DNA from: a virus | Length of the DNA: 64,000 bases | IMG/VR virus record: IMGVR_UViG_3300044984_003188 | Strand: one strand, 5' to 3' | Shown here: one piece after another, positions 5,034-25,364 of the stretch | Layout: every line of letters starts with the position of its first letter | How positions within the stretch are numbered: position 1 is the first letter of the stretch | Notes under the pieces: generated by a model | Told to the model about the DNA's origin: nothing | Database searches by the model: none | What the model saw: only the letters and a program-made list of their open reading frames with translations | Position numbers and translations under genes: made by a program

Positions 5034-5105
5034 GGACCGGTAATTCAGAGGTAGAATAGTGGACTCTTACTCCATATGCCGTCGGTTCGATCCCGACTCG
5101 GTCCT
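5034..5105 (+). tRNA. tRNA-Lys(CTT), CCA not encoded
   Basis: Cloverleaf; loop CT-CTT-AC; TTCGATC T-loop; ends T-C-ATAAGCAC. Confidence 0.9.
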
Positions 5106-5173
5106 CATAAGCACCTCCGTTGTATAAATAGCAATGTCAATAAGACTATTTCACAACGGAGGGTTAGCGCCAA
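5106..5173 (+). promoter_or_regulatory. Conserved endonuclease leader hairpin with T4 late promoter, copy 1
   Basis: CATAAGCAC-[CTCCGTTGT..TATAAATA..ACAACGGAG]-GGTTAGC; homologous to 8676 and 24610. Confidence 0.85.
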
Positions 5174-6046
5174 ATGCACTATACTATTTATAAAATAACT
5201 AATAAGATTAATGGCAACTTTTATATAGGAAAACATAAAACCAAGAATCTAAATGATAAATATATGGGTTCTGGTAAACTTATACAAGCAGCCATAAAAA
5301 AACATGGTATTGAAAATTTTGAGAAAGAAATACTTGAGACTTTCAATACTGAAGAAGAAATGAATGAGGCCGAAAAAAGATATGTAGTTCTAGGTGAAGG
5401 TAGCTATAATCTTTGCCCTGGTGGACAAGGTGGTTGGGGTTATGTAAACACTAATAATCTTGGTGGTACCTTAGGATTAAAACACACTGAAGAATATAAA
5501 AACAATCATTCATTAATAACAAAAAGAATATATGAAAATAGGGATGAAGAAACTAAAAAAGATATTTCTAAGAAAATAGCTGCTGGTTTAAAAGCTGTAA
5601 ACTATGATCCAAGAAACTTTTTAGGTAAAAAACATACTCAAGAAGCAATACAAAAAATGTCCTTATCAAAGGAAGGACATGGACTTGGAGAAAAAAATAG
5701 TCAGTTTGGTACCATATGGATTTCTAATGGTATAGAAGAAAAAAAGATTAAAGCTTCTGATCAAATCCCAGAAGGATGGACTAAACAAAGATTACAATCA
5801 TTTAAAAATGATATATTAAAAGATATCAAGAAAAAAGAAAAAGAACAACAAAAAAATATTGCTCTTGAAACTAAAAAACAAGAACTACATAAACTTTATG
5901 AAATATATAAAGTTAAAGGTTTTGCAGGAGTTAGACAAGAAGACTATAAATATAGTCAACCATATTTAGTTATGAGTTTTGCAAAATATTTTCCTGATTT
6001 TACCCCACAAATGGGGAAGAAAAGAAAACAAAAATATTCCTCGTGA
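5174..6046 (+). mobile_element. Seg-like GIY-YIG homing endonuclease
   Basis: YTIYKITNKINGNFYIGKH, YMGSG, YNL and NUMOD3-like GKKHT motifs. Confidence 0.92.
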
Positions 6047-6114
6047 TCCGAGCAAGCGAACGGACCCGGCTGTTAACCGGAGTTTGCCAGGGGCGGTACC
6101 TGGACGAGGAGCCA
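6038..6114 (+). tRNA. tRNA-Asn(GTT), atypical T-loop
   Basis: TCCTCGT/ACGAGGA acceptor, CT-GTT-AA loop, T-loop GGCGGTA, GCCA end. Confidence 0.85.
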
Positions 6115-6122
6115 GTTTTATT

Positions 6123-6199
6123 GCTCCCTTAGCCCAACTGGTAGAGGCGTCTGACTTAAGATCAGATTAGTGCCAGTTCAAATCTGGCAGGGAGTACCA
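6123..6199 (+). tRNA. tRNA-Leu(TAA), short variable loop
   Basis: TCTGA-CTTAAGA-TCAGA; ACCA end. Confidence 0.9.
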
Positions 6200-6203
6200 C
6201 TTT

Positions 6204-6288
6204 GGATCAGTAGCGTATATGTCAGGCAAGTGCTACAGCCGGGCTTTTAATCCGGTCGCAAGGGGAGCGTTACCTCACTGATCCTCCA
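6204..6288 (+). tRNA. tRNA-Lys(TTT), atypical
   Basis: CCGGG-CTTTTAA-TCCGG; enlarged D arm; T-loop AGCGTTA; TCCA end. Confidence 0.8.
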
Positions 6289-6294
6289 CTTTAA

Positions 6295-6370
6295 TGTCCT
6301 GTAGCTCAATTGGGAGAGCATTTGCTTGATAAGCGAAAGGTAGTTGGATCGAAACCAACCAGGACAACCA
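6295..6370 (+). tRNA. tRNA-Ile(GAT)
   Basis: Cloverleaf, TT-GAT-AA loop, ACCA end. Confidence 0.92.
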
Positions 6371-6457
6371 TTCAGTTCTTGTTTCTCTTTCTATAGAGAA
6401 ATATAGAAGAGGCCTTCCAGTTGGGCTGATGAAATACACTGGATATATTCTAAGTTT

Positions 6458-6535
6458 GCGGTAGTCTTCTAATTGGACTAGGAACCCTGACTTTCAATCA
6501 GGCCAATGCGGGTTCGATTCCCGTCTACCGCACCA
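6458..6535 (+). tRNA. tRNA-Glu(TTC)
   Basis: CCTGA-CTTTCAA-TCAGG; ACCA end. Confidence 0.92.
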
Positions 6536-6540
6536 AACTT

Positions 6541-6615
6541 GCTCTTAAAGCATAAGTGGCGATGCACGGGTTTTGTAATCCTGAGAACTTGGTTCGATTC
6601 CGAGTGAGAGCACCA
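6541..6615 (+). tRNA. tRNA-Thr(TGT)
   Basis: TT-TGT-AA loop; TTCGATT T-loop; ACCA end. Confidence 0.9.
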
Positions 6616-6660
6616 AATATCTATTGACTTTCCTTTAGTCTGTGATATAAAGATCATATA

Positions 6661-7062
6661 ATGAGAGGTGATGACATGAGTACAATGAACCGAATTGGTA
6701 ATGCAGGCAATCGCTTCCAGGGCCAATTTAAACGGGTGCTATGTGTTTGCTCTGCAGGTCTTCTTAGGTCTCCAACCACAGCATTTGTTCTTTCACAAGA
6801 ACCTTATAACTTCAATACTCGTGCTGTTGGTATTTCTCGTGAATATGCTCTGATTCCGATTGATTCCGTTCATCTCCATTGGGCTGATGAAATTGTGACA
6901 ATGGAGAAAGCACATACTAAAGTTGTTGAAGAACTGATTAATACTTCTGGTCTAGGTTCAACTGGACCTAAAGTTATTCAGTTGAATATTCCCGACGATT
7001 TTGCATATCGTGATCCTCAGCTAATTGAACTTATCAAGAAGGCTTACGATTCACATAAATAA
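6661..7062 (+). CDS. Low-molecular-weight protein tyrosine phosphatase-like protein
   Basis: VLCVCSAGLLRSPT P-loop (CX5R) and IPDDF; likely start 6676. Confidence 0.85.
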   Translation: MRGDDMSTMNRIGNAGNRFQGQFKRVLCVCSAGLLRSPTTAFVLSQEPYNFNTRAVGISREYALIPIDSVHLHWADEIVTMEKAHTKVVEELINTSGLGSTGPKVIQLNIPDDFAYRDPQLIELIKKAYDSHK

Positions 7063-7128
7063 AAGTTGTGGTATTAAGCGAAAATCAATTGACAGCTGAT
7101 TATATCCATGGTATACTATCTTAGTTAA

Positions 7129-7219
7129 GGGCGTGAGGGCTGGTGCTCACCAGGAGCTTATACCTCCTTAGGCAGCTGATTACTGTTGGGATAGGGTTCA
7201 ATTCCCTACGTGCCTACCA
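7129..7219 (+). tRNA. tRNA-Ile(TAT) with long variable arm and 4-nt D-loop
   Basis: AGGAG-CTTATAC-CTCCT; ~23-nt variable region; TAGGG-TTCAATT-CCCTA; ACCA end. Confidence 0.75.
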
Positions 7220-7306
7220 AAATTTTGATCTAGCTCAGATTAGGAATTACCTGGTTTGCGATGATGCTAGACGGATAGACCAATACGTGAGGTTTATCAA
7301 CAATTT

Positions 7307-7383
7307 GCTCCTGTTGACTAACTGGATAAGTTCACTGCCTTCTAAGCAGTTTTATGGGGGTTCGAATCCCTCCAGGAGTACCA
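7307..7383 (+). tRNA. tRNA-Arg(TCT)
   Basis: ACTGC-CTTCTAA-GCAGT; ACCA end. Confidence 0.9.
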
Positions 7384-7402
7384 CTTTTAAAGGATCTATA
7401 CT

Positions 7403-7573
7403 ATGACAGGTAATGAAGATAACCAGCTTGCCGGATTAATTCTATTTGTAATTGGCATGTTTCTTTGTGGTTGTGCTGTAGGTGTATTTTTTGGTAAAGG
7501 ATTTGGATTCTTATTTGTAGGACTTCCATTACTTGCCATCGGCATTTACGGTATACTTACAGGCCCAAAGTAA
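7403..7573 (+). CDS. Small membrane protein (56 aa, not in ORF track)
   Basis: AAGGA SD; two hydrophobic segments. Confidence 0.55.
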   Translation: MTGNEDNQLAGLILFVIGMFLCGCAVGVFFGKGFGFLFVGLPLLAIGIYGILTGPK

Positions 7574-7723
7574 GTTCAGATATTGTGGTAAGTAAAGTCT
7601 ACGCTAAATCGGCTAGCTAGCGATGATAAGGTAGAGTGGATATAATCAATCCATAAAAGGAGAATGGGCAGATAATATCTCATAAATATTATTGGATACC
7701 TCACCTGCCACAAACCAGAACTT
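7572..7723 (+). ncRNA. Orphan multibranch structured RNA with anticodon-like hairpin
   Basis: Closing stems AAGTTC/GAACTT and TGTGGTA/TGCCACA; inner ATAATAT-CTCATAA-ATATTAT. Confidence 0.5.
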
Positions 7724-7745
7724 CTAATATAGAAAGGAATATATT

Positions 7746-8297
7746 ATGTCTTTCAACGTTCATGATCACTACAAGGATCTGAGTGTAGAAGATTTGAAGT
7801 TAATTTCTAATGCTACTCGACTACCATATGCAGTTTGTCTACTCAATTTAGAATATGACCTAAATATTGGCAACTGTATTCGAACTGCTCATATTTTTGG
7901 TGCTGAACAAGTCTTTATCTTTGGTCGTCGACGCTATGATCTAAGATCAACTGTTGGTGCTAATCACTATACTAATATTGTTAAGTATGATTTTGATGAA
8001 CTTACTGATGATGAAGTGATTGTCAATCAGTTTGAAAATATGGTTTATGACTATAATCTTGAGCCCTTGCTGATTGATAAAACAGCAGAATCAAGAGATA
8101 TTTCTGAATCTCACATTTATAATAATGGCGATCTAACAACACCATGTTTAGTCTTTGGAAATGAAAATTCTGGTATTCCGACTTGTCTAACGGATAAATA
8201 TCCATGCTTTCATATTCCACAACGTGGTGTAATTCGTTCACTCAATGTTGCTTCTGCCGCTGCGGTTGCAATGTATGAGTTCTCTAAATATCTATAA
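7746..8297 (+). CDS. SpoU/TrmH-family RNA 2'-O-methyltransferase
   Basis: NIGNCIRTA, LVFGNENSGI and IPQRGVIRSLNVASAAAVAMYE SPOUT motifs. Confidence 0.92.
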   Translation: MSFNVHDHYKDLSVEDLKLISNATRLPYAVCLLNLEYDLNIGNCIRTAHIFGAEQVFIFGRRRYDLRSTVGANHYTNIVKYDFDELTDDEVIVNQFENMVYDYNLEPLLIDKTAESRDISESHIYNNGDLTTPCLVFGNENSGIPTCLTDKYPCFHIPQRGVIRSLNVASAAAVAMYEFSKYL

Positions 8298-8303
8298 GAA
8301 TAA

Positions 8304-8377
8304 GCGGAATTGGCGTAAAGGTAGCGTCTTTGGCTTCCACCCAAATGGCACGAGTTCGAATCTCGTATTCCGCACCA
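8304..8377 (+). tRNA. tRNA-Gly(TCC)
   Basis: CT-TCC-AC loop; ACCA end. Confidence 0.92.
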
Positions 8378-8382
8378 GAGAC

Positions 8383-8594
8383 CCGGTCTATAATCACGTA
8401 GCAATCAGTGGCTTGATTTGGTGAATCAAGATATTGTGGACAACCATCTACAGCTGAGTATGTTGAGTATAAATCGGTAAGAATTGATTCTTACGCTCGT
8501 GTGCAGGAACGACCTGCTAACCTTGTGTTTCAAGAGGTCTCGGCGCCTCGAGCTCCGTTCCGGGATTGCGAAACATAGTAAACGTAAGAATCAA
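8383..8594 (+). ncRNA. One or two orphan structured RNAs between tRNAs
   Basis: Stem 8383-92/8468-77; perfect 12-bp stem TTGATTCTTACG (8484-95)/CGTAAGAATCAA (8583-94) enclosing several hairpins. Confidence 0.55.
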
Positions 8595-8599
8595 ACAGT

Positions 8600-8675
8600 T
8601 GCAGGGTAGAGGAGCTCGGTCGTCCTCGCCTGGTTCATACCCAGGAAATCGTGGGTTCAAATCCCACCTCTGCTA
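8600..8675 (+). tRNA. tRNA-Met(CAT), initiator-like, CCA not encoded
   Basis: 1:72 mismatch; CCTGG-TTCATAC-CCAGG; ends A-C-ATAAGCAC. Confidence 0.85.
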
Positions 8676-8742
8676 CATAAGCACCTTGATTATATAAATA
8701 GCAATATCAATAAGACTATTATATAATCAAGGGTTAGCTTAA
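8676..8742 (+). promoter_or_regulatory. Endonuclease leader hairpin with late promoter, copy 2
   Basis: CATAAGCAC-[CTTGATTATATAAATAG..CTATTATATAATCAAG]-GGTTAGC. Confidence 0.85.
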
Positions 8743-9441
8743 ATGTACTATACTATATACAAAATTACCAATAAGATTAATAATAAATTTTATATTGGTA
8801 AACACAAGACTAAAAAATTAGATGATGGTTATATGGGCTCAGGAAAACTTATCAAAGCCGCCATCAAAAAACACGGTAAAGAAAACTTTGAGAAAGAAAT
8901 ACTTGGTTTTTTTAATACCGAAAAAGAAATGGATGAAGCTGAAAAAATATATGTAGTTTTAAGTGAAAGTAGTTATAATCTTTGTCCTGGTGGGGAAGGT
9001 GGATGGGGATATGTTAATGAAAATAAATTATCTCCTATTATGAATCCTGAAACAAAAGTATATCAAAACGGTCGTAAAGCAACTGATCTTATTTTAGAAA
9101 GTAAATATGGTGAAAATTGGAGATCTGTTCTTTCAAATATTGCTAATTCTAAACTAAAAGCAATCTTAGAAAAAGACCCATTATATCTATCTAGTAAAAT
9201 TGGTTCTTTAAACCATTTCTTTGGGAAAAACCACACATCACATACAAAACAAAAAATGTCTTTATCTCACAAACATAAACACAATGGTGAGAAAAATTCA
9301 CAATTTGGTACCATTTGGATAACTGATGGTACCAATAATAAAAAAATAAAATTAGATGAACCGATGCCTGATAATTGGTATCGTGGTAGAAATATAAATG
9401 CCTTCAGATCAAGTGATCTCGGTCGTCTCATAAGCGACTAG
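8743..9441 (+). mobile_element. Seg-like GIY-YIG homing endonuclease
   Basis: YTIYKITNKINNKFYIGKH; paralog of 5174 and 24678. Confidence 0.92.
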
Positions 9442-9471
9442 ATCGTGGAGCGTTACCACGTGAAGGCACCA
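9400..9471 (+). tRNA. tRNA(CAT) (Met or Ile2), highly atypical fold
   Basis: GCCTTCA/TGAAGGC acceptor; D arm GATC-AAGT-GATC; 6-bp anticodon stem; T-loop AGCGTTA; ACCA end. Confidence 0.75.
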
Positions 9472-9492
9472 ATTTGCTTTTAGGATAATGAT

Positions 9493-10188
9493 ATGAGTGT
9501 AGTTAGATTTTTTCTAGATGATTTATTCACAACCGATAGTTCGGAATATGAAATTTTACATAAAGCGGTTTTAGAGTGTAAAGATGTTCCTGGAGCTATA
9601 GTTGAAATAGGCACCAGAATGGGTGGTTCTGCTAGAATCATCATTGATTCTCTAGTATATAATTCAGATACGGATCGTTCAATGTTTTGTATTGATCCTT
9701 ATGGTAATATTGACTATATTAGTACAAATTTAAATGTAACACAACATTATCCAGGCACGCCAGTTTCTGGTGATCCTACTTCTAAAGATATAACTCAACC
9801 TATAAAACTTGATTATTCTAATGAAATGAGGAATAAAATTATTCCTTCTTTATATTATTATGCTTTTAGTAAAGGTATTAATTTTACTTTCTTTTGTATG
9901 GAAGACAGTGAATTTTTTGCTAGATTTAGCGATGGTGTGCCCGTCTATAATCAATTTAAGAAACTAGAAAATCAATATGCATTTGTTTTCTTTGATGGTC
10001 CACATCACAATGAAGCAGTTGAATTAGAAACAAAGTTCTTTGCAGAAAGATCAACCATCGGCACAGTTTTTGTTGCAGATGATATCTGGATGTATAATCA
10101 TGATTTATTTGAAAAAATTATTTTTGATCATGGCTTTACAGTCCTTGAAAAAGGTAATATTAAAGCTTCTTATAAGAAAACATCTTAA
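9493..10188 (+). CDS. Class I SAM-dependent methyltransferase (TylF/Methyltransf_24-like)
   Basis: GAIVEIGTRMGGS, IDPY and FFDGPH motifs. Confidence 0.8.
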   Translation: MSVVRFFLDDLFTTDSSEYEILHKAVLECKDVPGAIVEIGTRMGGSARIIIDSLVYNSDTDRSMFCIDPYGNIDYISTNLNVTQHYPGTPVSGDPTSKDITQPIKLDYSNEMRNKIIPSLYYYAFSKGINFTFFCMEDSEFFARFSDGVPVYNQFKKLENQYAFVFFDGPHHNEAVELETKFFAERSTIGTVFVADDIWMYNHDLFEKIIFDHGFTVLEKGNIKASYKKTS

Positions 10189-10198
10189 GGTTTAAAAT

Positions 10199-10831
10199 AT
10201 GCTTGAAACGTGTTGTGACTTAATGGTTGAAGCCTATGAAAAAGGGCTTATGACTTCTAGAGATGGGAATGTATCTCTACGCTATAGAGGTCAAGACTTT
10301 TTCTATCTATCTCCAACAGATATGCGAAAACAGACTCTTAAGCCAGATCAGTTTAAGAAACTATCCACTTCACTAAAGGAAGATCGTTCACCAATTGCTC
10401 TTCCTTATACAAATATTTCTCTTGGTTTAAAGCCGTCGGGTGAGTTTCCATTGCACTACATGCTACAACGATTGCTTCCAAAGGATTGGGAAACTCGGGT
10501 AGTAATTCATACTCATTCAACTTATACAGTTGCCGCTATGCATGCTGGTCTAGAACTTCATCGGCTTAAAGATCACTTTCCTGAGATTGCTAGATATACT
10601 AAAGTAGCTAAAAGCACTGATGATGTTCCTCCTATTTCTTGGGATTTAGCTGAAGCTTGTATGGAAAACATGAAGCTAAATATGGCTACCGGTGAAACTG
10701 AGTTTAATATTGTCGGTATTAAAGGTCATGGTGTGGTTTCAGTTGATAAGACTCCTTGGAGAGCTTATGAGCATATCGAGAGGCTTGAACACATCTCTAA
10801 GATAATTTTGAGCTCAGGTAAAGGAATTTAA
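10199..10831 (+). CDS. Class II aldolase/adducin-family protein
   Basis: GNVS, PSGE, VIHTHS and GHGV metal-binding motifs. Confidence 0.88.
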   Translation: MLETCCDLMVEAYEKGLMTSRDGNVSLRYRGQDFFYLSPTDMRKQTLKPDQFKKLSTSLKEDRSPIALPYTNISLGLKPSGEFPLHYMLQRLLPKDWETRVVIHTHSTYTVAAMHAGLELHRLKDHFPEIARYTKVAKSTDDVPPISWDLAEACMENMKLNMATGETEFNIVGIKGHGVVSVDKTPWRAYEHIERLEHISKIILSSGKGI

Positions 10832-10871
10832 TTGACACACTAACTATAGTGTGATATATTAAATAAATAAT

Positions 10872-10960
10872 GGGGAGGCTGTTCCGACGGTGGTGGGACG
10901 GCAGTCTGTAAAACTGTTACATTAGAAACATTGTAGGTTCGAATCCTATCCTCCCCACCA
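10872..10960 (+). tRNA. tRNA-Tyr(GTA)
   Basis: CT-GTA-AA loop, long variable arm, ACCA end. Confidence 0.92.
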
Positions 10961-10984
10961 TTTTTCAATGAAAAGGATATAAAT

Positions 10985-11494
10985 ATGAAGACTATTCTTA
11001 TGGCTACAATTATGGCACTTGGTATGACTTCGGTTGCAATTGCCCAGAGTAAGAACGCTTCCGATAGTGGATTTTTTGTCGGTGGGCAGGTAGGATCATT
11101 TACAGGTAAGAATGATCAAGTTACCATTGGTTTAAATGGTGGATATCAAGTCAATCGTTTTCTCCGTGGTGAAGTTACTGTAGAAAATGCTTGGAAGACC
11201 GGAACAGGTTCTGGAACTATGGTATTTGCAAATGTTGTTCCGCAGTACCGAATCCCTGGCACTACTCTAACACCATATGCAGTGGCAGGTGTAGGTTATG
11301 CTTTTGATTCCCTAGGTGCAGTTAAGAGTGGTGTTGCTTCTCCGGTTTATAATCTAGGACTAGGAACACGTGTCATGATCACTGATAATCTTGATGCTGA
11401 TCTTCGCTGGCGTAATGTCCGTTCAATGAATGGTTCTAATGCTCGTGTTCGTGATGACCATATTTTTATGGTTGGTGCATCTTATAAGTTCTAA
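10985..11494 (+). CDS. Outer-membrane beta-barrel protein (Omp/Opacity-like)
   Basis: Signal peptide; TPYAVAGVGY; C-terminal VGASYKF aromatic signal. Confidence 0.85.
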   Translation: MKTILMATIMALGMTSVAIAQSKNASDSGFFVGGQVGSFTGKNDQVTIGLNGGYQVNRFLRGEVTVENAWKTGTGSGTMVFANVVPQYRIPGTTLTPYAVAGVGYAFDSLGAVKSGVASPVYNLGLGTRVMITDNLDADLRWRNVRSMNGSNARVRDDHIFMVGASYKF

Positions 11495-11576
11495 AATAAA
11501 TACGGGGACGTGGGATAAACACCCGACAATCCATGTCTTAATTTGAGAATTGGTAATCTCTCCCGAAACATTTTAT

Positions 11577-11652
11577 GGTGAGTGGAGTCAGTAGGTATGG
11601 ACGGTGGTCTGTGAAACCATCTAAGCGGGATCAATACCCGTCACTCACCCCA
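11577..11652 (+). tRNA. tRNA-His(GTG) with G-1:C73
   Basis: GGTGAGTG/CACTCACC plus CCA; CT-GTG-AA loop. Confidence 0.9.
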
Positions 11653-11665
11653 ACTTAAATAATAC

Positions 11666-11758: not shown

Positions 11759-11774
11759 TTTTTTTAGGTCTACA

Positions 11775-12004: not shown

Positions 12005-12008
12005 ACTT

Positions 12009-13918: not shown

Positions 13919-14005
13919 GGGGGAGATTCCACGTGGTGTGGATTTATCCAGCTGGATAACTACAGCAACAAATTTTAATTGGTTCGAGTCCGATTTCCCC
14001 CGCCA
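13919..14005 (+). ncRNA. Anticodon-less tRNA-like RNA carrying the TACAGCAACA motif
   Basis: Acceptor GGGGGAG/TTCCCCC plus GCCA; TTCGAGT T arm; anticodon arm replaced by TTATCCA-GC-TGGATAA; motif at 13961-13970. Confidence 0.7.
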
Positions 14006-14094: not shown

Positions 14095-14186
14095 GGAGCG
14101 TAAACCGGACAGGCGTGCCGGACTTCCCTGCTAAGGAATGTGGACTTAGAAATAAGTTTTAGTTTCAAATACTATGCGCTCCGCCA
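14095..14186 (+). tRNA. tRNA-Ser(GCT), 8/4 type
   Basis: 8-bp acceptor GGAGCGTA/TGCGCTCC; 4-bp T stem TAGT/ACTA; CT-GCT-AA loop; GCCA end. Confidence 0.85.
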
Positions 14187-16388: not shown

Positions 16389-19300
16389 TTATCTATCTAG
16401 ATACCATGTCCATTTAGTCATAACAAATCCATTTGGAACTTGATGCTTTTCCAGTAAAGAAATAATCTTTTCCATTATTAGGCGTGTTTTTGATTTTGGT
16501 ATAAATGCTCGTGGTGAATCCCATTCCTTGCAGAATGTATCGTAGAACTCATAATCTTCACCTAGTTTAGTTCCATCAAACAGCATTAGTGGACCACAGT
16601 ATTTTACTTGGTCATGATATCGTAGTCGACTAAGCAACTTTCTAATCATAATCATATCTTTATGAAAGACAAAATCATTGTATTGGTGTTTCATGATTGA
16701 AATTTAACCTTTTATCGTTTAAAGTGTTCTTGTATAATTGCAGTTAAAATAGTTCTTAGAGTTCCATCATGATTTAAAATTCTGTGGGGTTGCTGTCTAA
16801 TATCTGTACTAATATTTGCATTCCTAAGCTTTACTCTCAATAAGAAATCAGCTTCAAGTGAAACCAAATGTTTTACTGTGTGTTTAACTTGTTTCAAAGA
16901 TCAACTCAAGATGTATATTGCTAATAATATTAGTATTATCAAATATTAGATATATTTTGAGATCTTTGGAAAGATCTAAGGTTATATTATCCATTTCAAT
17001 AAAATCCACACCAACCGATGGTATACCAAATACCATATCAAAAACTTTATTCATTAGTCTTTATGCCAGCGTTGTGGATTATCATCCCAATCAGGTTGTC
17101 GCCACTGACCATTAATCCAAACGTAGTTAGAACCTGGCTTTTTGGGCCTAGGTTCTGGTTTATGCCATGACTGTGGGTTATCTGGTTGATCATCATAATC
17201 TGAATTAGACTCATAATCGTCTTTCCAGCGGTCCATTTTACCTCCTAAATGATCTATTCATTTCAGTGCGAGTTACTAAATGTTGTCCAGCACCTACGCT
17301 AAGAATATAGCTTACGTCTGAACACCATCCAACATGGGATACCATACCTCGTAGTGGGCTGTCAAGTTGGGCTTCAATGGGATACATACCCATTGAACTC
17401 TCACCCATATTTACTATAGTAAGTGTATCTAGAATTTCTCGAATCTCATACACATAGTTGGGTTTGAGCAGGTTGGTGTCCTGCTCTCGAAACATAGCGC
17501 CCAGGATAAGGTCGCCCTTTGAATACTGGTTATCAGCAGGGCGAATGGCAAATCTAGCAAGTGTTTTCATATTATGAACCTCTATGTTGCAGAGCTGGTG
17601 CGACGCACGCTGCCCTCGTAGTGGGTGAGTTGACACTGTTCGACGGGCAGTACATCCCAGCCCTCATACTCATAGTCCCGACGAGCTCGCATCCATTGCG
17701 CAACCTGGTGCAGATAATAGCTGGTGGGGTTGGTGTTGGGCCGTTCCAAAGGGTCCTGGAGACGCTTGAGCAGCAGTGCAATGTGACCCGCATCACTGAG
17801 ATGCCGCATGGGCCACAACCTGTCAATCTGATCACTGCCATTCTCAGTGTCATACCAATAGCCTTCATCCAACCTTTCCTGTGCAACCTGCGCTAGGATC
17901 AGCTGGTATTCCTCTTTGGTTTTGAAAAGGAAAACTCGATCGCCATGCTTCTCGTGGAATCGAAGGATCTTCATTTGGGTCAGTCCTTGCTTGGTCCTGT
18001 GCATTGTAGCACGACTCTAGTCGGTGTCAACCACATCTTCTACAGTTACGACAGAAATATTCAGCATGGCATCCTGTGCAAGGATGCCATAATCTTGACA
18101 TTCCAGGGTATATTTTACCTGGCTGAGAAGCCATTCTGTGTCAAAGGGATTGGGTGTGACTTGACCTCGAACAATCACTGAGTCTGCATGATCGTAAATG
18201 AATTCTGTCAGAATTACAACACGTTTCTTTGTCACGTTCATTTTATCCTAAGCAAGTTGCCAAATAACTTTATCTCTTAGTTCAAGAATTTCGGAACCAT
18301 CATGTTCCTTAATACGGAATAAAGTTCCCTTAGGGATAAGGGCAATCTCTAGACTATCTAGATTAGATCCAATGCACATTTTTGGATATTTGTTTTCTAG
18401 ATAAGAAACAAGTTCAATCTTTTCTTCAGGATCTTCGCCATCTTCAAGCCATTGAATGACTCGTTCATCTCTCAGTAGTTCTGGGTATTGGGTATTCCAG
18501 GAATACCAACCAGAGCCAAAACCGGGGCTAAATAGAATCTTAACTTTTTCAGTCATTTCAATAATCCTTTGGTGGGTTGATATCAGCATCAACTAGCACA
18601 GGTTTCTCTGCAAAGATATAGTAATCAGGAACGTAAGAAAGATTGTTCTTGGCGTTCTCGGTCTGATAGTAGGCATGAGCTAGTTCAAGACTTTCAAAAT
18701 CTTGATCCAGGAAAGGCTTGCGACCCCATCCACGTTCACTTTCCCAAAGAGTCACACGATATTTTGCATTCATGCTTTATCTCCAAACCGTATGTTCATG
18801 TGGATCAAAAGAACCACCCTGACGGTCTACATGACCTTCCCAACTTGATTTAATATTTCTTGTTGTAGCTTTCTTTAACTCGGCACGAAGTTGTTCAATC
18901 TCAATAGCTGCCTCAAGCATAAGACCATTAAGAACGGCATCGGTCTTAGTAATTTTACCACCAAAGACACCTTCACGGAGAAGGACAACAATATCAGTCA
19001 TGCTTTAAGCCTTTCCGAACTTCTTCTTCAACCGCTCAAATTCATGACGATCACGCTCTTCTCGTATTGTAGCATGATGCTCTTCTCGAGTAATACGGTC
19101 CGTCATCTCTCGGTCCGTTTCCGGTTCACATACCATGATTGCAAGGTATGTTCCGTCACTATACTCATGATGGCGTTCATCAATACGTGCGTCGCCACCA
19201 TAGTCTTCACGATAACGCTGAAGATTAGCAATAGCTTCGTCCAGGGTATCATATTCAAAATCAATGCTGGTCTTTTCGTGCCAAACCAGCTTGCGTTCAC

Positions 19301-19819
19301 GGTTCACGGTCATGTTTTGTTCCTTTCTTAGCCGCAGTTCTTGCGGAGATAGATATAGATACGGCCATTATGATATGGACTTGTCGAGCGCTTGATGGAG
19401 AGACTGACGCCATAGTCCCGAGCTCCATCATAGAGCTGAGCGATGAAGTCATCTTGACGATCAAATACCTTCCTAACAGTGGCCTTACCATATACTTCAA
19501 GTTTATTCCAGACGAGGTTGGTGTCGATACGATTCACGGTCATGTTCTGTTCCTTGTTCATAGTCTCTTTATAACCCAACTTGGTATTAAAGTCAATAGG
19601 TATTTTTCAATCCTTGCGACTGACCCAGAGCACGTCGGAATCGAGGCGGGCCGCCATCTCGGTCAGATCCAAACCATAATGGATCACTCGGTCGAGCAGG
19701 TCACTCTTCTTAACCTCGACCCAAAAGAATTCGTTTCGGCTGTTAACCAGCACTCTGATGGGCCCACGGTGGGCCTTGATGGTGGAGTATAGGTCGGTCA
19801 TGTTTGTTTCCTTCATCAT
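16389..19819 (-). other. Leftward early operon of small hypothetical genes (16389-16694, 16712-16897, 17054-17236, 17238-17570, 17582-17974, 18017-18241, 18248-18556, 18558-18773, 18777-19001, 19005-19313, 19328-19543, 19607-19819)
   Basis: Tightly packed minus-strand ORFs driven by early promoters at 19568-19596 and 19826-19854. Confidence 0.7.
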
Positions 19820-19825
19820 AGTCTC

Positions 19826-20276
19826 TTTATACCACCATCTGATTTAAAAGTCAACACTAAGGATATCAATGACTTAGCCGTTTCAGGTACCTAACCCTTT
19901 GAAAAGATTATCAAAACTTTTTTAGGCAATCCAAAAAAATTTCAAAAAAGTTTGAGCACACCATGGTGCCCAGACACCCATAGAACCAAAAAGTCAATCT
20001 TTTCAATGGGTTAGGCTTTAAGCAAAAGTTAATGATATCAATGGGTTAGGCTAAGAAAGGGTTTCTGGGCAGCCTAAGCCACCATGGATGGATATACCAT
20101 ATGCCTAACTCAAAGCTAGCAGAGGTCGTCATGCTAACCCATTGATAAGATTAAGACCTACATTTTTTTCAAAAAATTTAAGTTTTTTATTCCAAGGAAA
20201 TCAATGGGTTAGGTAGGTCGCCATGCTAACCCATTGATTTGTCACGGTTGACATTTTTTATGGATGGTGGTATAAA
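19826..20276. repeat. Divergent-promoter element copy 2 (seven IHF-consensus-like sites)
   Basis: Promoters 19826-19854(-) and 20248-20276(+); motifs at ~19863,19891,19996,20032,20133,20198,20226 in orientation + - + + - + -. Confidence 0.85.
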
Positions 20277-20318
20277 GTGACTATGAACAAGGGAATGACG
20301 ATGAACAAGGGAATGACG

Positions 20319-20525
20319 ATGACCGCTAACGAAATCTGGGACACCCTCGAGGAAACCGGTCGGTTTGCCTCTCGTGAGGCTTATGGGTCGATGTGGGCTG
20401 ACCGCATCGCTGAGCTGAAGGCTGAACTGTATGCTGCCGCCAAGGAATATGGGGTGCGTCTATCCATCACCTGGGCCTTGACCAACGACAAGTTTTATGT
20501 CCAGCTGCGTAAGAATGTGGGTTGA
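20319..20525 (+). CDS. Hypothetical early protein, paralog of 19328-19543
   Basis: LYAAAKEYGVRLSI...YVQLRKNVG vs LYDGARDYGVSLSI...YIYLRKNCG; 18-bp tandem duplication in the leader. Confidence 0.65.
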   Translation: MTANEIWDTLEETGRFASREAYGSMWADRIAELKAELYAAAKEYGVRLSITWALTNDKFYVQLRKNVG

Positions 20526-20574
20526 CTTTAATACCAAGTTGGGTTATAAAGAGACTATGAACAAGGAAGTCAAG

Positions 20575-20970
20575 ATGACCAAAGAAACGGCTACCCAGCG
20601 TCGTGCACGTGAACGGCAGGAACTGGTTCGGGCGCAGCAGGAGCGTGAGCAGAAGTTTGAAGCTGAGAAATCCATTCGACTCCTGCATGCCATAGCTCGT
20701 GCTCATCATCAGGGGGTGGATGCGCAAATGTTTTACCGCTATGACAATGTGCTCTACTATGACTTCAACTTCAGCAAGATCAACCTGCCCAACAGCTACG
20801 ACTCGATTTGCGGTCCGGTGGCTGAACTCAGCGAGTGGATGATGGACAGCATCGAAAATCAACTCAAGCTTGTTGAAGAAGCTCGTGACCGTGGCAAGCG
20901 GTTGGCAAATCTTAAGAAAGAAGTGCTGGCTCGACTGAGTGACGAGGAACGTGAAGCTCTGGGAGTTTAA
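20575..20970 (+). CDS. Hypothetical early protein
   Basis: Downstream of promoter 20522-20550; C-terminal LARLSDEEREALGV. Confidence 0.7.
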   Translation: MTKETATQRRARERQELVRAQQEREQKFEAEKSIRLLHAIARAHHQGVDAQMFYRYDNVLYYDFNFSKINLPNSYDSICGPVAELSEWMMDSIENQLKLVEEARDRGKRLANLKKEVLARLSDEEREALGV

Positions 20971-20975
20971 TAACA

Positions 20976-21491
20976 ATGAATGACCGTTTCCGTAAGACTC
21001 TTGTTCTTGCACTTCGACCGGATACCGGAGAGAACGAAGCTGCAGCTGCTTTTAGCGCTCTTCGTAGAATGGCTTCAAGCGGAAACGTTTCTACTCTTCT
21101 AGATGAAAAGCCTGAAACTAAGGTTGTTTATAAAGATAAAACCGTGTATATGTCTGAATCTTATACACACAAACTTACATATACAGTTAATATTAAAGCA
21201 ACATACCTTCAGGATTATATCCACACTGTTTTTACAAATGCAGTAAAAGGTGGTATGTGCATTCATATTATCCATCTAAAATCTTCTGATAACAAGATCA
21301 CATCTCCATCAGAACTTAAGTTCAATGTTCTTGGATATGAAAAGGGTATTAAACGATTTTCTGATTTTCTTGATCGTGTTGAGCTCGAAATGCTTCAAAA
21401 ATCACAGAATAATTCTAAAGCACCTGATTACTCAGACAAAGTGAAAAAGCCTGGTTTTATGAAGCAACTTTTTCGAGCCATATTTAACTAA
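20976..21491 (+). CDS. Hypothetical protein
   Basis: 171-aa ORF; N-terminal LAL...GENEAAAA motif resembles DUF2786. Confidence 0.65.
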   Translation: MNDRFRKTLVLALRPDTGENEAAAAFSALRRMASSGNVSTLLDEKPETKVVYKDKTVYMSESYTHKLTYTVNIKATYLQDYIHTVFTNAVKGGMCIHIIHLKSSDNKITSPSELKFNVLGYEKGIKRFSDFLDRVELEMLQKSQNNSKAPDYSDKVKKPGFMKQLFRAIFN

Positions 21492-21564
21492 AAGGTATTG
21501 ACATTTACCCAAATATGGATATAATAGTCTATGACAAAATGATGTAATATGGAAAGATTATAAT

Positions 21565-21744
21565 ATGCAAGTATATAATGATGTTTGGGGTAAAGTAAGG
21601 TGTCAAGTCTCGGATCAAGTCCATGTTAAAGTACCAATGCAAATTTGTAATGAAGCCTGGAGACAATTATGGGGTTCAAATGCAAGACATATTTCACGTC
21701 AAGTATTTCATACATTAAATGAACTAGATGAAACCAGTCTATAA
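21565..21744 (+). CDS. Small 4-residue-periodic family protein (59 aa)
   Basis: MQVYNDVWGKVRCQVSDQVHVKV...; follows a TTGACA promoter at ~21498. Confidence 0.5.
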   Translation: MQVYNDVWGKVRCQVSDQVHVKVPMQICNEAWRQLWGSNARHISRQVFHTLNELDETSL

Positions 21745-21803
21745 TCAAGTATTTCATGAACTCTTAGACTAAAAATATAAAAATACACAGAAAAGGAAAA
21801 AAG

Positions 21804-22226
21804 ATGAGTGACTTTAAAGACTTTGCAGGACAGACTCTAAAGTGGACCGCTATCGGTGGTGTTTGTTTAGGTATTGTTGCTGGTGGGGCATTTTTGCTCA
21901 ATGTTGCAACCCAACCTCTTCGTACCGCTGGTGGTGTTATCAATCGAACATTTGATGCAGACAATGTGATTGCTAAATATGAATGGTTCCATGATGCACA
22001 TGGACAATACCAAGCACGAGTCAATCAAATTGTGTCGACCCGACAAATGTATATCGAAGAGAAAGATGTTGCCGAGCGTTCTCGCCTTCGGATTGAACTA
22101 TCTGCACAACGTCAATCTTGCCGTGATATCGTGACTCGATATAATGCAAATGCTACCAAGACTAATGTCTCGATTTTCCAAGGTCGAGAAGCACCTTCTT
22201 CCCTTAACATTCAAACTTGTGAGTAA
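21804..22226 (+). CDS. Membrane-anchored hypothetical protein
   Basis: N-terminal TM helix; AAGGA SD. Confidence 0.75.
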   Translation: MSDFKDFAGQTLKWTAIGGVCLGIVAGGAFLLNVATQPLRTAGGVINRTFDADNVIAKYEWFHDAHGQYQARVNQIVSTRQMYIEEKDVAERSRLRIELSAQRQSCRDIVTRYNANATKTNVSIFQGREAPSSLNIQTCE

Positions 22227-22232
22227 TATATA

Positions 22233-22763
22233 ATGAATAAGATGATCTTCCCCGTCGTTGCTCTAGTTTCTGGCGCTATTCTTCTTACTGGTTGTAATGA
22301 AGATAAGCCTGCACAACCACAAGTAAAGAATGCCCAGGCTGAACTTGCCCAACGAGCAGCAAATTCAATTCAGTTCACCGATAATGCTGAAATTGACAAT
22401 ATCAAGAACCGAGTTGAACTTACCAGCAAGCCAGGTCTTCTTGGTTATGTAATTCTATTCAATGAATCCGGACAGCCCATTATGTATGAAGGTGTTCGTG
22501 GTAAGATTACTTCTGGTTCTAAGCGCCTAACAGCACCCGATCGTGCACAACAGATTTCCACTCATGGCAATAACGGCGGTCAGCACTCTGTGGTTCGCCA
22601 AGCACCATCTGATGAAGGAACTTATGGTTCTTCCAACCCATATATCTTCTATTGGAATATTGATGGTGTTTATCGCCAGTGGAGTGGCCACTATCTCTAT
22701 TCTACACAGCCAATGCGTCTAACCATTCAGCCTCTAGTTGTTAATATTGAGGAAAAGAAGTAA
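22233..22763 (+). CDS. Putative lipoprotein
   Basis: Lipobox LLTGC. Confidence 0.75.
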   Translation: MNKMIFPVVALVSGAILLTGCNEDKPAQPQVKNAQAELAQRAANSIQFTDNAEIDNIKNRVELTSKPGLLGYVILFNESGQPIMYEGVRGKITSGSKRLTAPDRAQQISTHGNNGGQHSVVRQAPSDEGTYGSSNPYIFYWNIDGVYRQWSGHYLYSTQPMRLTIQPLVVNIEEKK

Positions 22764-23215
22764 TGGATTATACCATTACAATTGGTTGTGATCATGCAGG
22801 TCTGGAGCTAGCCCGAGAAATCTCGGTATGGCTCTTTGACTCTGGTCATAAGATCCACACTTTCTTTCCGGCACCAAATACACACGTTGATTATCCAGAC
22901 TATGCCCATAGAACATGTTCTTCCGTTACTCTAGAATCTCACACTACAAGTCGTGGTATTCTGGTCTGTGGTTCTGGTGTAGGCATGGCAATTGCGGCTA
23001 ATCGACATGCTGGAATTCGTTGTGTAAATACAAATGATCCAGAGATTGCTAAGATTGCAAGAGAACATAATGATGTAAATGTTCTTGCACTTGGTGCTCG
23101 ATTTGCATCTGATAGAGATAAAATCTGGAATTGCATCACTAATTTCCTTCAGACTAAATATGAAGGTGGGCGACATGAACAACGAGTTATGAAACTATTT
23201 GGAGTATATAAATGA
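22763..23215 (+). CDS. rpiB: Ribose-5-phosphate isomerase B
   Basis: IGCDHAG, VDYPDYA, GILVCGSGVGMAIAANR, YEGGRHEQRV. Confidence 0.95.
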   Translation: MDYTITIGCDHAGLELAREISVWLFDSGHKIHTFFPAPNTHVDYPDYAHRTCSSVTLESHTTSRGILVCGSGVGMAIAANRHAGIRCVNTNDPEIAKIAREHNDVNVLALGARFASDRDKIWNCITNFLQTKYEGGRHEQRVMKLFGVYK

Positions 23216-24180
23216 AATTTGTAATTGCAGGCTTAACGGCAACTCTACTGACTACAACAGCACATGCACAAGTACTAAACGGTGCTGGTGCTACATTCCC
23301 TGCACCGATTTATTCTAAATGGGCAGAAGAATCTAAATCTGCTGGATTTGGAATTAACTATCAAGCAATTGGTTCTGGTGGTGGGCAAAATCAAATCATC
23401 AACCGAACAGTTGATTTTGGAGCATCAGATGCTCCTATGACACTAGAAAAACTAAAACAATATAATCTGTTTCAAGTTCCTACGGTTATGGGATCGGTTG
23501 TTGTTATTGTAAATATTCCTGGTATTGCTACAAATACCTTAAATATTTCTGGGCAAAATCTAGTTGATATTTTCAATGGTAAGATTACCAAATGGAATGA
23601 TCCAAAGATTGTTGTAGATAATCCAAGTTTAAAACTACCTAATATGGCAATTGCACCAGTCTATCGTGCTGATGGTTCAGGTACCACATTTGTGTTTGTT
23701 TCATATCTACATTCACAAGATAAAGATTTTAGTGTGCCTGCGGTATCAATCAAGTGGAATGCTGGTTCAGGCGCCCGTGGTAATGATGGCGTAGCAGCCA
23801 CTGTAAAGCGCATGCCGGGATCAATCGGTTATGTTGAAAAAGTTTTTGCCACAAATAATAATATTCCAACTGCAGTGCTAAAGAGTGCAACTGGAGCTTG
23901 GGTAGCACCTAGCAATAAAAGCTTTATGGCAGCAGTAGCTAAAGCAGATTGGTCGGATACTAATGAAGCAAATGTAATTAATCGCTCTTGTGATGAATGC
24001 TATCCTATTGTATCCGCAACATATGTTCTTATTCCCAAGGACTCTAAGAAGCTAAATGAGATTACAAGTTGGCTAGAATGGGTTTATAAAAATGGAAATG
24101 CCTCAGCGATTTCCCTTGACTTTATCCCACTTTCGGATTATAATAAGGGTATGGTAATCAAACAACTAAAGAATCAGTAA
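23212..24180 (+). CDS. pstS: Phosphate ABC transporter substrate-binding protein PstS
   Basis: GAGATFPAPIY, GSGGG, VDFGASDAPM, RADGSGTT. Confidence 0.96.
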   Translation: MKFVIAGLTATLLTTTAHAQVLNGAGATFPAPIYSKWAEESKSAGFGINYQAIGSGGGQNQIINRTVDFGASDAPMTLEKLKQYNLFQVPTVMGSVVVIVNIPGIATNTLNISGQNLVDIFNGKITKWNDPKIVVDNPSLKLPNMAIAPVYRADGSGTTFVFVSYLHSQDKDFSVPAVSIKWNAGSGARGNDGVAATVKRMPGSIGYVEKVFATNNNIPTAVLKSATGAWVAPSNKSFMAAVAKADWSDTNEANVINRSCDECYPIVSATYVLIPKDSKKLNEITSWLEWVYKNGNASAISLDFIPLSDYNKGMVIKQLKNQ

Positions 24181-24190
24181 TAGTTTAACT

Positions 24191-24265
24191 GCGCCTATAG
24201 CTTAACAGTAAAGCCGACAGCTCATAACTGTCTTGATCTCCGGGCAGAACGGGGTGGGCGCACCA
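24191..24265 (+). tRNA. tRNA-Met/Ile2(CAT)
   Basis: GACAG-CTCATAA-CTGTC; atypical T-loop GGCAGAA; ACCA end. Confidence 0.85.
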
Positions 24266-24277
24266 AAGGAATATATC

Positions 24278-24505
24278 ATGCTACTAAAAGACTTCATTTC
24301 ATTACTTCAAGATAAATATGAGAATGCAACTGCTGATGAAGCATATCTTGAAGTAATGGGTGAACCTGAAATTTATGTAGATACATTTGAAGAAGCAGGT
24401 GGATATCGGTATGTTTATGCCGGCTATTCACCGGATATCAAAGTTGATATGGATCCTGCTAATGGTAATTACGTAATATCTGCTTTTGGAGATTCTCGTG
24501 AGTAA
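24278..24505 (+). CDS. Hypothetical protein
   Basis: AAGGA SD then MLLKDF. Confidence 0.65.
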   Translation: MLLKDFISLLQDKYENATADEAYLEVMGEPEIYVDTFEEAGGYRYVYAGYSPDIKVDMDPANGNYVISAFGDSRE

Positions 24506-24535
24506 ATTGACAGGTTCTATTTTTAAAGCTAAAAT

Positions 24536-24609
24536 GCCCGTATAGCCCAATTGGCAGAGGTAGCAGTTTCAAAAACTGTGTGTTGTCGGTTCGAATCCGA
24601 CTACGGGTA
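24536..24609 (+). tRNA. tRNA-Leu(CAA), short variable loop, CCA not encoded
   Basis: GCAGT-TTCAAAA-ACTGT; ends A-C-ATAAGCAC. Confidence 0.9.
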
Positions 24610-24677
24610 CATAAGCACTCGAAAATTATAAATAGCAATATCAATAAGACTATTTATAATTTTCGAGGTTAGCTCAA
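24610..24677 (+). promoter_or_regulatory. Endonuclease leader hairpin with late promoter, copy 3
   Basis: Perfect 17-bp stem TCGAAAATTATAAATAG/CTATTTATAATTTTCGA. Confidence 0.85.
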
Positions 24678-25364
24678 ATGTTTTATACTATCTATAAAAT
24701 TACTAATAAAATTAATAACAAATATTATGTAGGTAAACATCAAACCAAAAATTTAGATGATAATTATATGGGTTCTGGTAAACTTATCAAAGCAGCCATT
24801 AAAAAACATGGTAAAGAAAACTTTAAAAAAGAAATATTACATATATTTGATAATGAATTAGAAATGAATACCAAAGAAAAAGAATTGGTTGTAGTAAGTG
24901 AATCAACTTATAATCTTATTGAAGGTGGTAAGGGTGGGTTTAGTTACATTAATAAAAATAATCTTAAATTACCACTTAATGAAAATAGCAAACAAAAAAT
25001 AGCAAATACTGTCAGAGAACATTGGCAAAATGGTGTTTATGAAAAAAATAAACAAAAGTTAATTAAACAAAATAGAACAATAAAGAAATCTACAAATTTT
25101 TCAATTAATAAATCTATACTTAAAAAAGCATTAGAACAAGCACAATCTCCCAATGCTGTTATGAAAAGAAAACAGACTTTTATAGAAAATAAACATCAAC
25201 AAGGATCAAAAAATTCTCAGTTTAATACCTGCTGGATTAATAATGGTTTTGAAAATAAAAAAATTAAAAAAGATCAACTTGAAATTTATCTTGAACAAAA
25301 CTGGATAAAAGGTAGGTTGATCCTTCAAAAGGAAATATATTATGGAAGATATGAAGTTTTGTAA
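24678..25364 (+). mobile_element. Seg-like GIY-YIG homing endonuclease
   Basis: YTIYKITNKINNKYYVGKH, YMGSG. Confidence 0.92.

Follow-up and report, generated by a model that had tools for sequence, protein, structure and literature searches.

The stretch of DNA that we analysed (64,000 nt of the IMG/VR virus record IMGVR_UViG_3300044984_003188, hereafter the window) carries three plus-strand tRNA genes that are complete through N73 and have no encoded CCA: tRNA-Lys(CTT) at 5034–5105 (62 bits in Rfam), an initiator-type tRNA-Met (tRNA-iMet) at 8600–8675 and tRNA-Leu(CAA) at 24536–24609, all recognized by both ARAGORN and Rfam. Each retains its T-arm motif and C74 (at 5106, 8676 and 24610, respectively), and N73-C is followed in every case by one shared 9-mer, then by a hairpin with covarying arms and an ORF for a GIY-YIG protein. 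The 64 kb contain this 9-mer, CATAAGCAC, at three positions and no others (5106, 8676 and 24610), and the 14-nt loop of the hairpin likewise occurs exactly three times. A sequence-only reading of this DNA had described three Seg-flanked tRNAs without CCA that share a junction after N73, and ARAGORN, Rfam and the 9-mer count bear this out. Its figure of 28 CCA-encoding tRNAs out of 31 was not reproduced exactly (ARAGORN finds 24 tRNAs, 21 of them with CCA, including the one at 7127, which ends in CCA on inspection), but its claim that the Seg-flanked trio are the CCA-less ones stands. At least four additional non-canonical tRNA-like genes also end in CCA on inspection. Thus, the three Seg-flanked genes are the only CCA-less tRNAs seen in the window. 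The source of the three cassettes is an uncultured, distant T4-like phage, whose DNA polymerase shares 48% identity with those of cyanomyoviruses; no near-identical DNA was found in the phage collection that we searched.

The leaders between these tRNAs and their ORFs have constant ends and a constant loop, whereas the outer arms of their stems differ completely and remain complementary. The Seg1 leader (5107–5173, plus strand) comprises a spacer and a hairpin at 5110–5165, with the promoter box TATAAATA at 5123–5130 in the 5′ arm and an SD-like GGAGG at 5158–5162 in the 3′ arm. The Seg3 leader (24611–24677, plus strand) is built in the same way, with a hairpin at 24614–24670, TATAAATA at 24627–24634 in the 5′ arm and an SD-like GAGG in the 3′ arm. 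In the Seg2 leader, which lies on the plus strand within the 8677–9399 insert described below, folding and sequence place the hairpin at 8684–8732 and TATAAATA at 8693–8700. The three leaders fold at −19 to −22 kcal/mol (z −3.8 to −6.4). Across the leader alignment, 94% of cells are paired and double changes occur in 11/11 outer pairs, a result equalled by 0/500 shuffled controls; G-U pairs are nearly absent from the 239 paired cells, and almost all stem changes are double. Among 30 leaders, the promoter box lies 17–26 nt past N73 within the 5′ arm, and the 3′ arm covers the Shine-Dalgarno (SD) sequence or the ATG. Alignment, folding and the 11/11 outer pairs thus uphold the earlier description of a covarying hairpin behind constant ends and loop, and the late promoter box that it placed in the 5′ arm is present at 5123, 8693 and 24627. 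Control by a hairpin with an internal late promoter has been described for I-TevI, I-TevII, I-TevIII, segB and the Aeh1 mobE gene of phages T4 and Aeh1: a stable stem buries the SD or start codon, and late transcripts lack the 5′ arm (PMC2988022). The proposal that the window hairpins sequester the ribosome-binding site around an internal late promoter agrees with this scheme. In structure, the leader has the features of the T4 homing-endonuclease switch, and we predict that it functions as one. Against this prediction, the SD-to-ATG spacing of the window leaders (9–11 nt) is long.

The three plus-strand ORFs encode full-length SegB homologues that include the C-terminal DNA-binding part. Seg1 (5174–6046; 290 aa) and Seg3 (24678–25364; 228 aa) are SegB-family GIY-YIG endonuclease ORFs, Seg1 with a long C-terminal tail; Seg2 (8743–9441) encodes 232 aa. 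All three match Pfam GIY-YIG (PF01541) and SegE_GIY-YIG (PF19835) over residues 3–79 and are mutually 49–58% identical, with strong conservation of the N-terminal 95 residues. In BLASTP, Seg1 is 44% identical to T4 SegB over 224 columns (E 3e-46), an alignment that takes in the whole 221 aa and reaches the C-terminal W..GR motif, and in tblastn Seg2 is 43.5% identical to T4 segB residues 1–218; the best named tblastn matches are segB. The SegB enzymes of T4 and T6 cleave site-specifically at tRNA gene 3′ ends (PMC2330249, PMC13096335). The SegB target consists of GGTTCRANTCC plus CCAR; cleavage falls immediately behind CCAR or, if CCAR is absent, 3 nt upstream, and in T2L 9/9 SegB sites lie at tRNA 3′ ends (PMC2330249). 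SegB homologues also co-localize with tRNAs of many isotypes (PMC13096335).

At their right-hand ends, the cassettes run into the next gene. The stop codon of Seg1 overlaps a plus-strand tRNA-like gene at 6039–6118 (anticodon GTT, non-canonical T loop, ending in CCA), which folds with a weak z score, is 94% conserved in the syntenic relative L007 and is called by neither ARAGORN nor Rfam. The final 13 codons and the stop codon of Seg2 come from another tRNA-like gene of this kind (9400–9474, plus strand; anticodon CAT, non-canonical T loop, ending in CCA; fold z −3.5) that shows two compensatory pair changes relative to L007. At its 3′ end, Seg3 runs into the following ORF, which begins at 25342. 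The breakpoints of the comparison between the window and L007 define the Seg2 cassette as a 723-bp plus-strand insert at 8677–9399 that comprises the leader and ORF codons 1–219. Window positions 8377–8676 and 9400–10918 are contiguous in L007, the insert leaves no target duplication, and C74 of tRNA-iMet directly abuts +1 of the tRNA-like gene with anticodon CAT. In one phage genome (L010, L028), two paralogues behind unrelated tRNAs are identical for 57 nt from the base after N73-C, and their similarity stops at the last conserved codons ahead of the next tRNA. Similarity between paralogues begins exactly past N73-C. The mobile unit is defined to the base, as leader plus ORF without a stop codon of its own. 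The new details are these nucleotide-exact ends and the stop codons taken from the next tRNA; our literature search for an earlier statement of a base-exact CCA junction found nothing beyond the SegB papers.

Two other kinds of element were considered and rejected. An integrase-type tRNA island (attL/attR) was discarded because the tRNA 3′ end is not repeated at any right end, and the 8677–9399 insert has no target duplication. An intron was discarded, as Rfam detects neither a group I nor a group II intron and the tRNAs are complete; the empty allele is a plain two-gene junction. The Seg cassettes are free-standing between genes, with upstream tRNAs complete through N73.

Empty alleles give a mixed answer to the suggestion that unoccupied sites should encode CCA. 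Two other empty alleles of related phages do contain it, but the L007 tRNA-iMet allele, the sole clean empty site in the lineage of the window itself, has only C74. Thus, CCA was missing from tRNA-iMet before the insertion or for reasons unconnected with it, and insertion "at the CCA" is not literally borne out for this gene. In other phages, filled and empty alleles of tRNA-Asn and tRNA-Glu reveal presence/absence polymorphism. When IMG/VR was scanned for exact patterns taken from the 3′ ends of the window tRNA-Lys and tRNA-iMet, nothing matched, and the only matches to the tRNA-Leu pattern were tRNA-Leu(TAA) genes of other phages, which lack CCA but are unrelated. We therefore found an empty allele for neither Seg1 nor Seg3. 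A search for synteny around the PstS-like gene that lies upstream of tRNA-Leu(CAA) recovered one relative, in which synteny stops before the tRNA. The N-terminal part of Seg1 is 89% identical to the copy behind tRNA-Ser(GGA) in L007 compared with 84% for its positional counterpart, a pattern that could reflect gene conversion between paralogues instead of movement.

The association with tRNA ends extends well beyond the window. The sequence-only reading named leaders that commonly lie away from tRNA ends as what would speak against it. We found 8 copies of the leader loop in IMG/VR and 11 in JGI metagenomes, 19/19 directly after tRNA N73; together with the three in the window, 22/22 leaders lie at a tRNA end, behind 13 tRNA species, and none lies elsewhere. 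In a sample of 80 loci with Seg homologues, which contained 45 non-redundant tRNAs ≤90 nt upstream, CCA is encoded by 4/45 Seg-upstream tRNAs compared with 465/515 other tRNAs at the same loci (Fisher p = 4e-32). Statistically, lack of an encoded CCA goes together with a neighbouring Seg cassette. C74 is kept in 43/45 of the Seg-upstream tRNAs, and 26/45 read CAT after N73. On a Seg tree of 47 tips, the upstream tRNA switches 32 times, and well-supported sister pairs sit behind different tRNAs. Decayed and solo-hairpin copies also exist, as expected from the life cycle of homing endonuclease genes; in L001 and L015, solo hairpins stand behind tRNAs after loss of the ORF.

These results are best explained by a model, which we consider likely, in which all three units at tRNA 3′ ends are cassettes of free-standing homing endonucleases that belong to the T4 SegB family, with the hairpin leader as an expression switch. 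Such a pattern is what one would expect from enzymes already known to cut tRNA genes at this spot, and it reveals no new kind of system. Homology, anatomy, covariation, distribution and one exact presence/absence pair are the observations behind the model, and from them we infer cleavage specificity, homing, expression timing and the route of tRNA 3′ processing. Each cassette consists of a ~67-nt leader and ORF only, spanning from tRNA position 75 (with N73 and C74 retained) as far as the next gene, which for Seg1 and Seg2 is a tRNA-like gene that supplies the stop codon. As shown for SegB, the Seg enzyme would bind the conserved T-arm motif and cut the 3′ end of the tRNA gene, and repair of the break from a cassette-bearing copy would place the endonuclease gene there. 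The T-arm element is generic, so that a cassette would occasionally arrive behind a different tRNA. The identical junction is the left terminus of the cassette. In read-through transcripts of the tRNA cluster, the hairpin would bury the SD; late-promoter transcripts, beginning in the loop, would lack the 5′ arm and be translatable. The upstream tRNA, whose encoded CCA was lost or never existed, must be cut free and finished by a CCA-adding enzyme. No such enzyme was found among the ten large ORFs scanned in the window. SegB homology and published cutting (PMC2330249), the 22/22 leaders, the exact start of similarity and the empty Seg2 site all support the earlier proposal of a mobile unit aimed at tRNA 3′ ends. 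Two points count against the homing model: more than 20 further tRNA genes of the window retain both T-arm motif and CCA and carry no cassette, and entry into a new tRNA would have to yield a left end exact to the base from hardly any homology in the flanks.

A more speculative model, which we regard as possible but rather doubtful, treats the cassette as an "inter-tRNA" module whose ends are tRNA processing sites (74/75 upstream, +1 downstream). The stop codon of seg ORFs is often U8-A9-G10 of the next tRNA, so that tRNA maturation would excise a stop-less seg mRNA and add non-stop repression. Repeated invasion and decay of Seg genes would then be a main cause of CCA-less tRNA genes and solo hairpins among T4-like phages, and would thereby bind these phages to a CCA-adding enzyme.

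It is unlikely that the leader is mainly a tRNA 3′-processing element, in which a conserved 8-nt spacer (CAUARR...) and the long hairpin direct RNase E, III or Z/BN to position 73/74, a CCA-adding enzyme finishes the end and the endonuclease gene is a passenger. Such a role would fit the conservation of post-N73 nucleotides across different leaders (26/45 CAT; 43/45 beginning with C), the persistence of solo hairpins in L001 and L015, and the C74 of the empty allele, exactly the nucleotide that would remain once RNase P had cleaved the adjoining tRNA-like gene. It also draws on the need for post-transcriptional CCA addition; the CCA of the occupied tRNAs must be added enzymatically in any case. 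However, the conserved features of the hairpin (late promoter box, SD/ATG cover) concern gene expression, not tRNA trimming, 90% of the tRNAs that these phages carry have an encoded CCA and no such leader, and the leader is almost always accompanied by a Seg ORF. A processing role is also compatible with cassette mobility and offers no alternative to it.

Still less probable is a DNA-level function, in which the inverted repeat forms a hairpin or cruciform that marks the insertion end or serves as a Seg-protein operator. The scarcity of G-U in 239 paired cells and the nearly exclusive double changes look as if both strands pair, and I-TevI binds an operator overlapping its own late promoter (PMC2988022). 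However, AT-rich stems sampled over large distances can lack G-U intermediates, each cassette has a single hairpin at its 5′ end and none at its 3′ end, the loop is asymmetric and conserved, and the fixed placement of promoter (5′ arm) and SD/ATG (3′ arm) matches a documented RNA mechanism. Duplication and vertical inheritance of tRNA-plus-seg modules, with the junction as leftover homology, would account for three paralogous ORFs at 49–58% identity but is hardly credible given unrelated upstream tRNAs with similarity beginning exactly one base past N73, a syntenic relative (L007) that precisely lacks Seg2, one leader lineage behind 13 tRNA species and an almost random tRNA partner on the Seg tree.

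The SegB-type cassette model thus brings sequence-level evidence from uncultured phage populations to the predictions of T4 SegB biochemistry. Seg enzymes would colonize the extreme 3′ ends of tRNA genes, hop among tRNA species and remodel phage tRNA arrays, and their occupancy is linked to the absence of an encoded CCA. Our work also supplies a covariation-supported set of regulatory hairpins. For annotation, a CCA-less phage tRNA followed by a CAT-type sequence and a TATAAATA hairpin flags a SegB-type cassette or its scar.

Among the closest known systems is SegB of T4 and T6, a GIY-YIG homing endonuclease that stands free within the tRNA cluster. In T4, a tRNA-Ile without CCA is followed by a 41-nt hairpin leader, segB and, 5 nt past the stop, tRNA-Arg. 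Both systems have a homologous full-length protein encoded directly after a CCA-less tRNA and just ahead of the next tRNA, and both have a hairpin leader with a late-promoter-like box; SegB homologues, too, occur beside many tRNA isotypes. In contrast, the window phage has three paralogous copies in one genome, with predicted enzyme activity. Window-type leaders exceed that of T4 segB in length and regularity, are widely conserved and contain a canonical TATAAATA, their junction is base-exact past C74 in most relatives, and their stop codons are often supplied by the next tRNA. The likeness to the control of I-TevI, segB and mobE lies in an SD or start codon within a stable stem and a late promoter placed for transcripts without the 5′ arm; the known system rests on experiment, whereas here the structure rests on covariation across dozens of cassettes and the transcription start is predicted. 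CCA-less tRNA genes of T4 are matured by host nucleases and tRNA nucleotidyltransferase. As in T4, tRNAs of the phage cluster without an encoded CCA must be completed enzymatically; for the phages studied here, the lack of CCA is in addition linked statistically to a neighbouring Seg cassette, a link that we did not find stated for T4.

ARAGORN and Rfam both call the three tRNA genes that precede the GIY-YIG ORFs of the window, tRNA-Lys(CTT) at 5034–5105, an initiator-type tRNA-Met at 8600–8675 and tRNA-Leu(CAA) at 24536–24609, and each of them runs through the discriminator base (N73) and a C into one common sequence, as the sequence-only reading had claimed. The window contains exactly three copies of the junction 9-mer, CATAAGCAC, one at each of these junctions, and likewise three of the 14-nt loop of the leader, the hairpin stretch that separates N73-C from the ATG of Seg1 (5174..6046), Seg2 (8743..9441) and Seg3 (24678..25364). 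The count of 28 CCA-encoding genes among 31 tRNAs did not hold, since ARAGORN finds 24 tRNAs, 21 of them with CCA, but the three Seg-flanked genes are indeed the only ones that lack it. By inspection, several extra non-canonical tRNA-like genes in the window end in CCA.

Two of these tRNA-like genes, at 9400–9474 (CAT) and 6039–6118 (GTT), are the right-hand neighbors of Seg2 and Seg1; they end in CCA and have weak D arms, non-canonical 7-nt T loops and T arms without the motif that SegB recognizes, and neither is called by ARAGORN or Rfam. The CAT gene is probably a functional RNA, because L007, which is syntenic with the window, has conserved it while two of its pairs (acceptor 7:66 and the first of the T stem) changed in a compensatory way. 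Odd tRNA-like genes at 13919–14005 and 14096–14186 also end in CCA; neither is called by ARAGORN, and the former has only a weak tRNA-Sec-like match in Rfam. A partial tRNA match lies at 26271–26334 (Rfam, 35 bits, model positions 5–66).

The association between leader and tRNA end extends well beyond the window. A pattern search for the leader loop matched at 8 IMG/VR loci and at 11 loci of JGI metagenomes. With the window's three, this gives 22 leader copies, all of which start directly after N73-C, behind 13 different tRNA species; none lies away from a tRNA end. We also assembled a set that did not depend on the leader, 80 IMG/VR loci encoding relatives of the Seg proteins, in which a Seg homologue follows 45 non-redundant tRNAs at a distance of 90 nt or less. 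CCA is encoded by only 4 of these 45, versus 465 of 515 other same-strand tRNAs at the same loci (Fisher p = 4e-32), and many of the 50 CCA-less "other" tRNAs precede a second Seg gene or a solo leader. C74 is kept in 43 of the 45 Seg-upstream tRNAs, and 26 read N73-CAT.

Comparison of paralogues and syntenic loci sets the limits of the inserted unit. Two paralogues in one phage genome, behind tRNA-Lys (L010) and tRNA-Val (L028), share 57 identical nt from the base after N73-C, and their similarity stops at conserved W..GR codons, just short of the next tRNA. The L007 locus is syntenic with the window at 80–86% identity, and window segments 8377–8676 and 9400–10918 adjoin there without a gap; this makes Seg2 an insert of exactly 723 bp (8677–9399), with no target duplication in this comparison. 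The insert ends at the same protein point as the paralogue similarity, and the final 13 codons and stop of Seg2 are supplied by the adjoining tRNA-like gene. For 29 of 65 non-redundant Seg ORFs, the next tRNA begins between −44 and +30 nt from the stop, and in a recurrent 10-nt overlap the Seg stop codon forms U8-A9-G10 of that tRNA. From these boundaries, the cassette consists, on sequence comparison, of the leader and the ORF and fits exactly between two tRNAs. Its left end is base-exact, although hardly any homology would be available for entry at an ectopic site.

The expectation that empty alleles would carry CCA was borne out in part. It holds for tRNA-Asn, where the empty L011 and filled L079 loci are 98% identical in the upstream flank, and for tRNA-Glu, where empty L051 and filled L042 are 99% identical, but not for the initiator tRNA-Met of L007, in which the tRNA-like(CAT) gene abuts C74. 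An elongator tRNA-Met of L079 (~1240–1300; intact counterpart at L011 265–338) is split in the anticodon loop by a further Seg-like ORF that has a TATAAATA late-promoter box and an SD of its own; this interruption may represent either an intron or a disruption.

The leader itself appears as first described, with constant ends and loop, outer stem arms that differ wholly among the three copies yet remain complementary, and the late promoter TATAAATA in the 5′ arm. The window copies average 86% column identity and fold at −19 to −22 kcal/mol (z-scores −3.8 to −6.4), with an SD-like GGAGG, AAGGG or GAGG in the 3′ arm, 9–11 nt ahead of the ATG. Thirty non-redundant leaders share an unpaired spacer of ~8 nt followed by a long stem; 27 have a TATAAATA-like box in the 5′ arm, 17–26 nt past N73, and the SD, in one class together with the ATG, falls within the 3′ arm. 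In a 15-sequence alignment, 94% of cells are paired, with double changes at every one of the 11 outer pairs, and neither shuffles nor slid registers came near this pairing. Because G-U pairs are nearly absent from the stems, the inverted repeat may have a role at the DNA level, although the placement of promoter and SD fits a known RNA switch. Further TATAAATA boxes lie at 5015–5022, 12 nt ahead of tRNA-Lys, and at 5945–5952, inside an 80-aa C-terminal tail unique to Seg1; the latter may serve as a late promoter, embedded in the ORF, for the tRNAs downstream.

Cassettes have also changed tRNA partners. The leader stem of Seg1 is also found behind other tRNAs, without change at tRNA-Ser(GGA) in L007 and L008 and almost without change at tRNA-Lys(TTT) in L006 and tRNA-Arg(TCT) in L098. 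Across a FastTree phylogeny of 47 Seg proteins, the upstream-tRNA label changes 32 times, compared with 34–40 for shuffled labels, and well-supported sister pairs sit on differing tRNAs (Glu/Trp, Lys/Val and Ala/Thr). Decayed cassettes behind tRNA-Arg(TCT) in L095, L104 and L105 have a mutated promoter box, a lost start codon and an early stop, and solo hairpins without a GIY-YIG ORF occur behind tRNA-Pro and tRNA-Gln (L015 4895–5300; L001, reverse complement, 1576–1650); these forms complete the usual homing-endonuclease life cycle. In L015, the solo hairpin precedes a Zn-finger/NUMOD-like ORF, which has a late promoter of its own. Together, leader distribution, SegB homology, the exact Seg2 insert, paralogue limits and partner switching support the proposal of a mobile unit aimed at tRNA 3′ ends.

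By its gene content, the window derives from a distant T4-like phage: it encodes T4-type DNA polymerase, UvsX, helicase and NrdA, the polymerase has only 48% identity to that of any cultured phage, and no near DNA match to the window was found. It also carries an NAD salvage pair (NMN-adenylyltransferase/NUDIX and nicotinamide phosphoribosyltransferase, 28317–30760) and a gene for a PstS-like phosphate-binding protein (23212–24180). The Seg proteins (290, 232 and 228 aa), all with a GIY-YIG domain, are paralogues with near-identical N-terminal domains and diverged C-terminal parts. Seg1 aligns over the whole length of T4 SegB (44% identity, E 3e-46), and the best named tblastn matches of Seg2 are segB genes.

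We consider the following mechanism likely as a whole, although we infer its cleavage, homing, transcript starts and tRNA 3′ route. A SegB-type enzyme would cut tRNA gene 3′ ends and the break would receive a cassette copy, whose insertion would remove or replace the CCAR cleavage element at the occupied tRNA. Seg expression would be confined to late transcripts starting inside the leader loop, and the upstream tRNA would be freed and then finished by a CCA-adding enzyme.

Much of this has precedent. SegB recognizes 27 bp comprising the T-arm motif GGTTCRANTCC, a degenerate middle and CCAR, and cuts directly after CCAR with 2-nt 3′ overhangs, or 3 nt further upstream where CCAR is missing; all nine of its sites in T2L are at tRNA gene 3′ ends (PMC2330249). 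If CCAG is counted as positions 74–77, three nucleotides upstream would fall after position 74, the junction seen in the window. According to a 2026 study, SegB homologues and tRNAs co-localize significantly at distances of up to 1 kb, and no isotype is preferred (PMC13096335). I-TevI is documented to be controlled by a hairpin that has a late promoter inside it, an arrangement also described for segB (PMC2988022). In T4 itself, a tRNA-Ile without encoded CCA is likewise followed by a 41-nt leader, which contains a hairpin and a box resembling a late promoter, and then by segB, with tRNA-Arg beginning 5 nt past the segB stop. The cassettes of the window represent no new system; they belong to the known SegB system, to which they add useful new detail.
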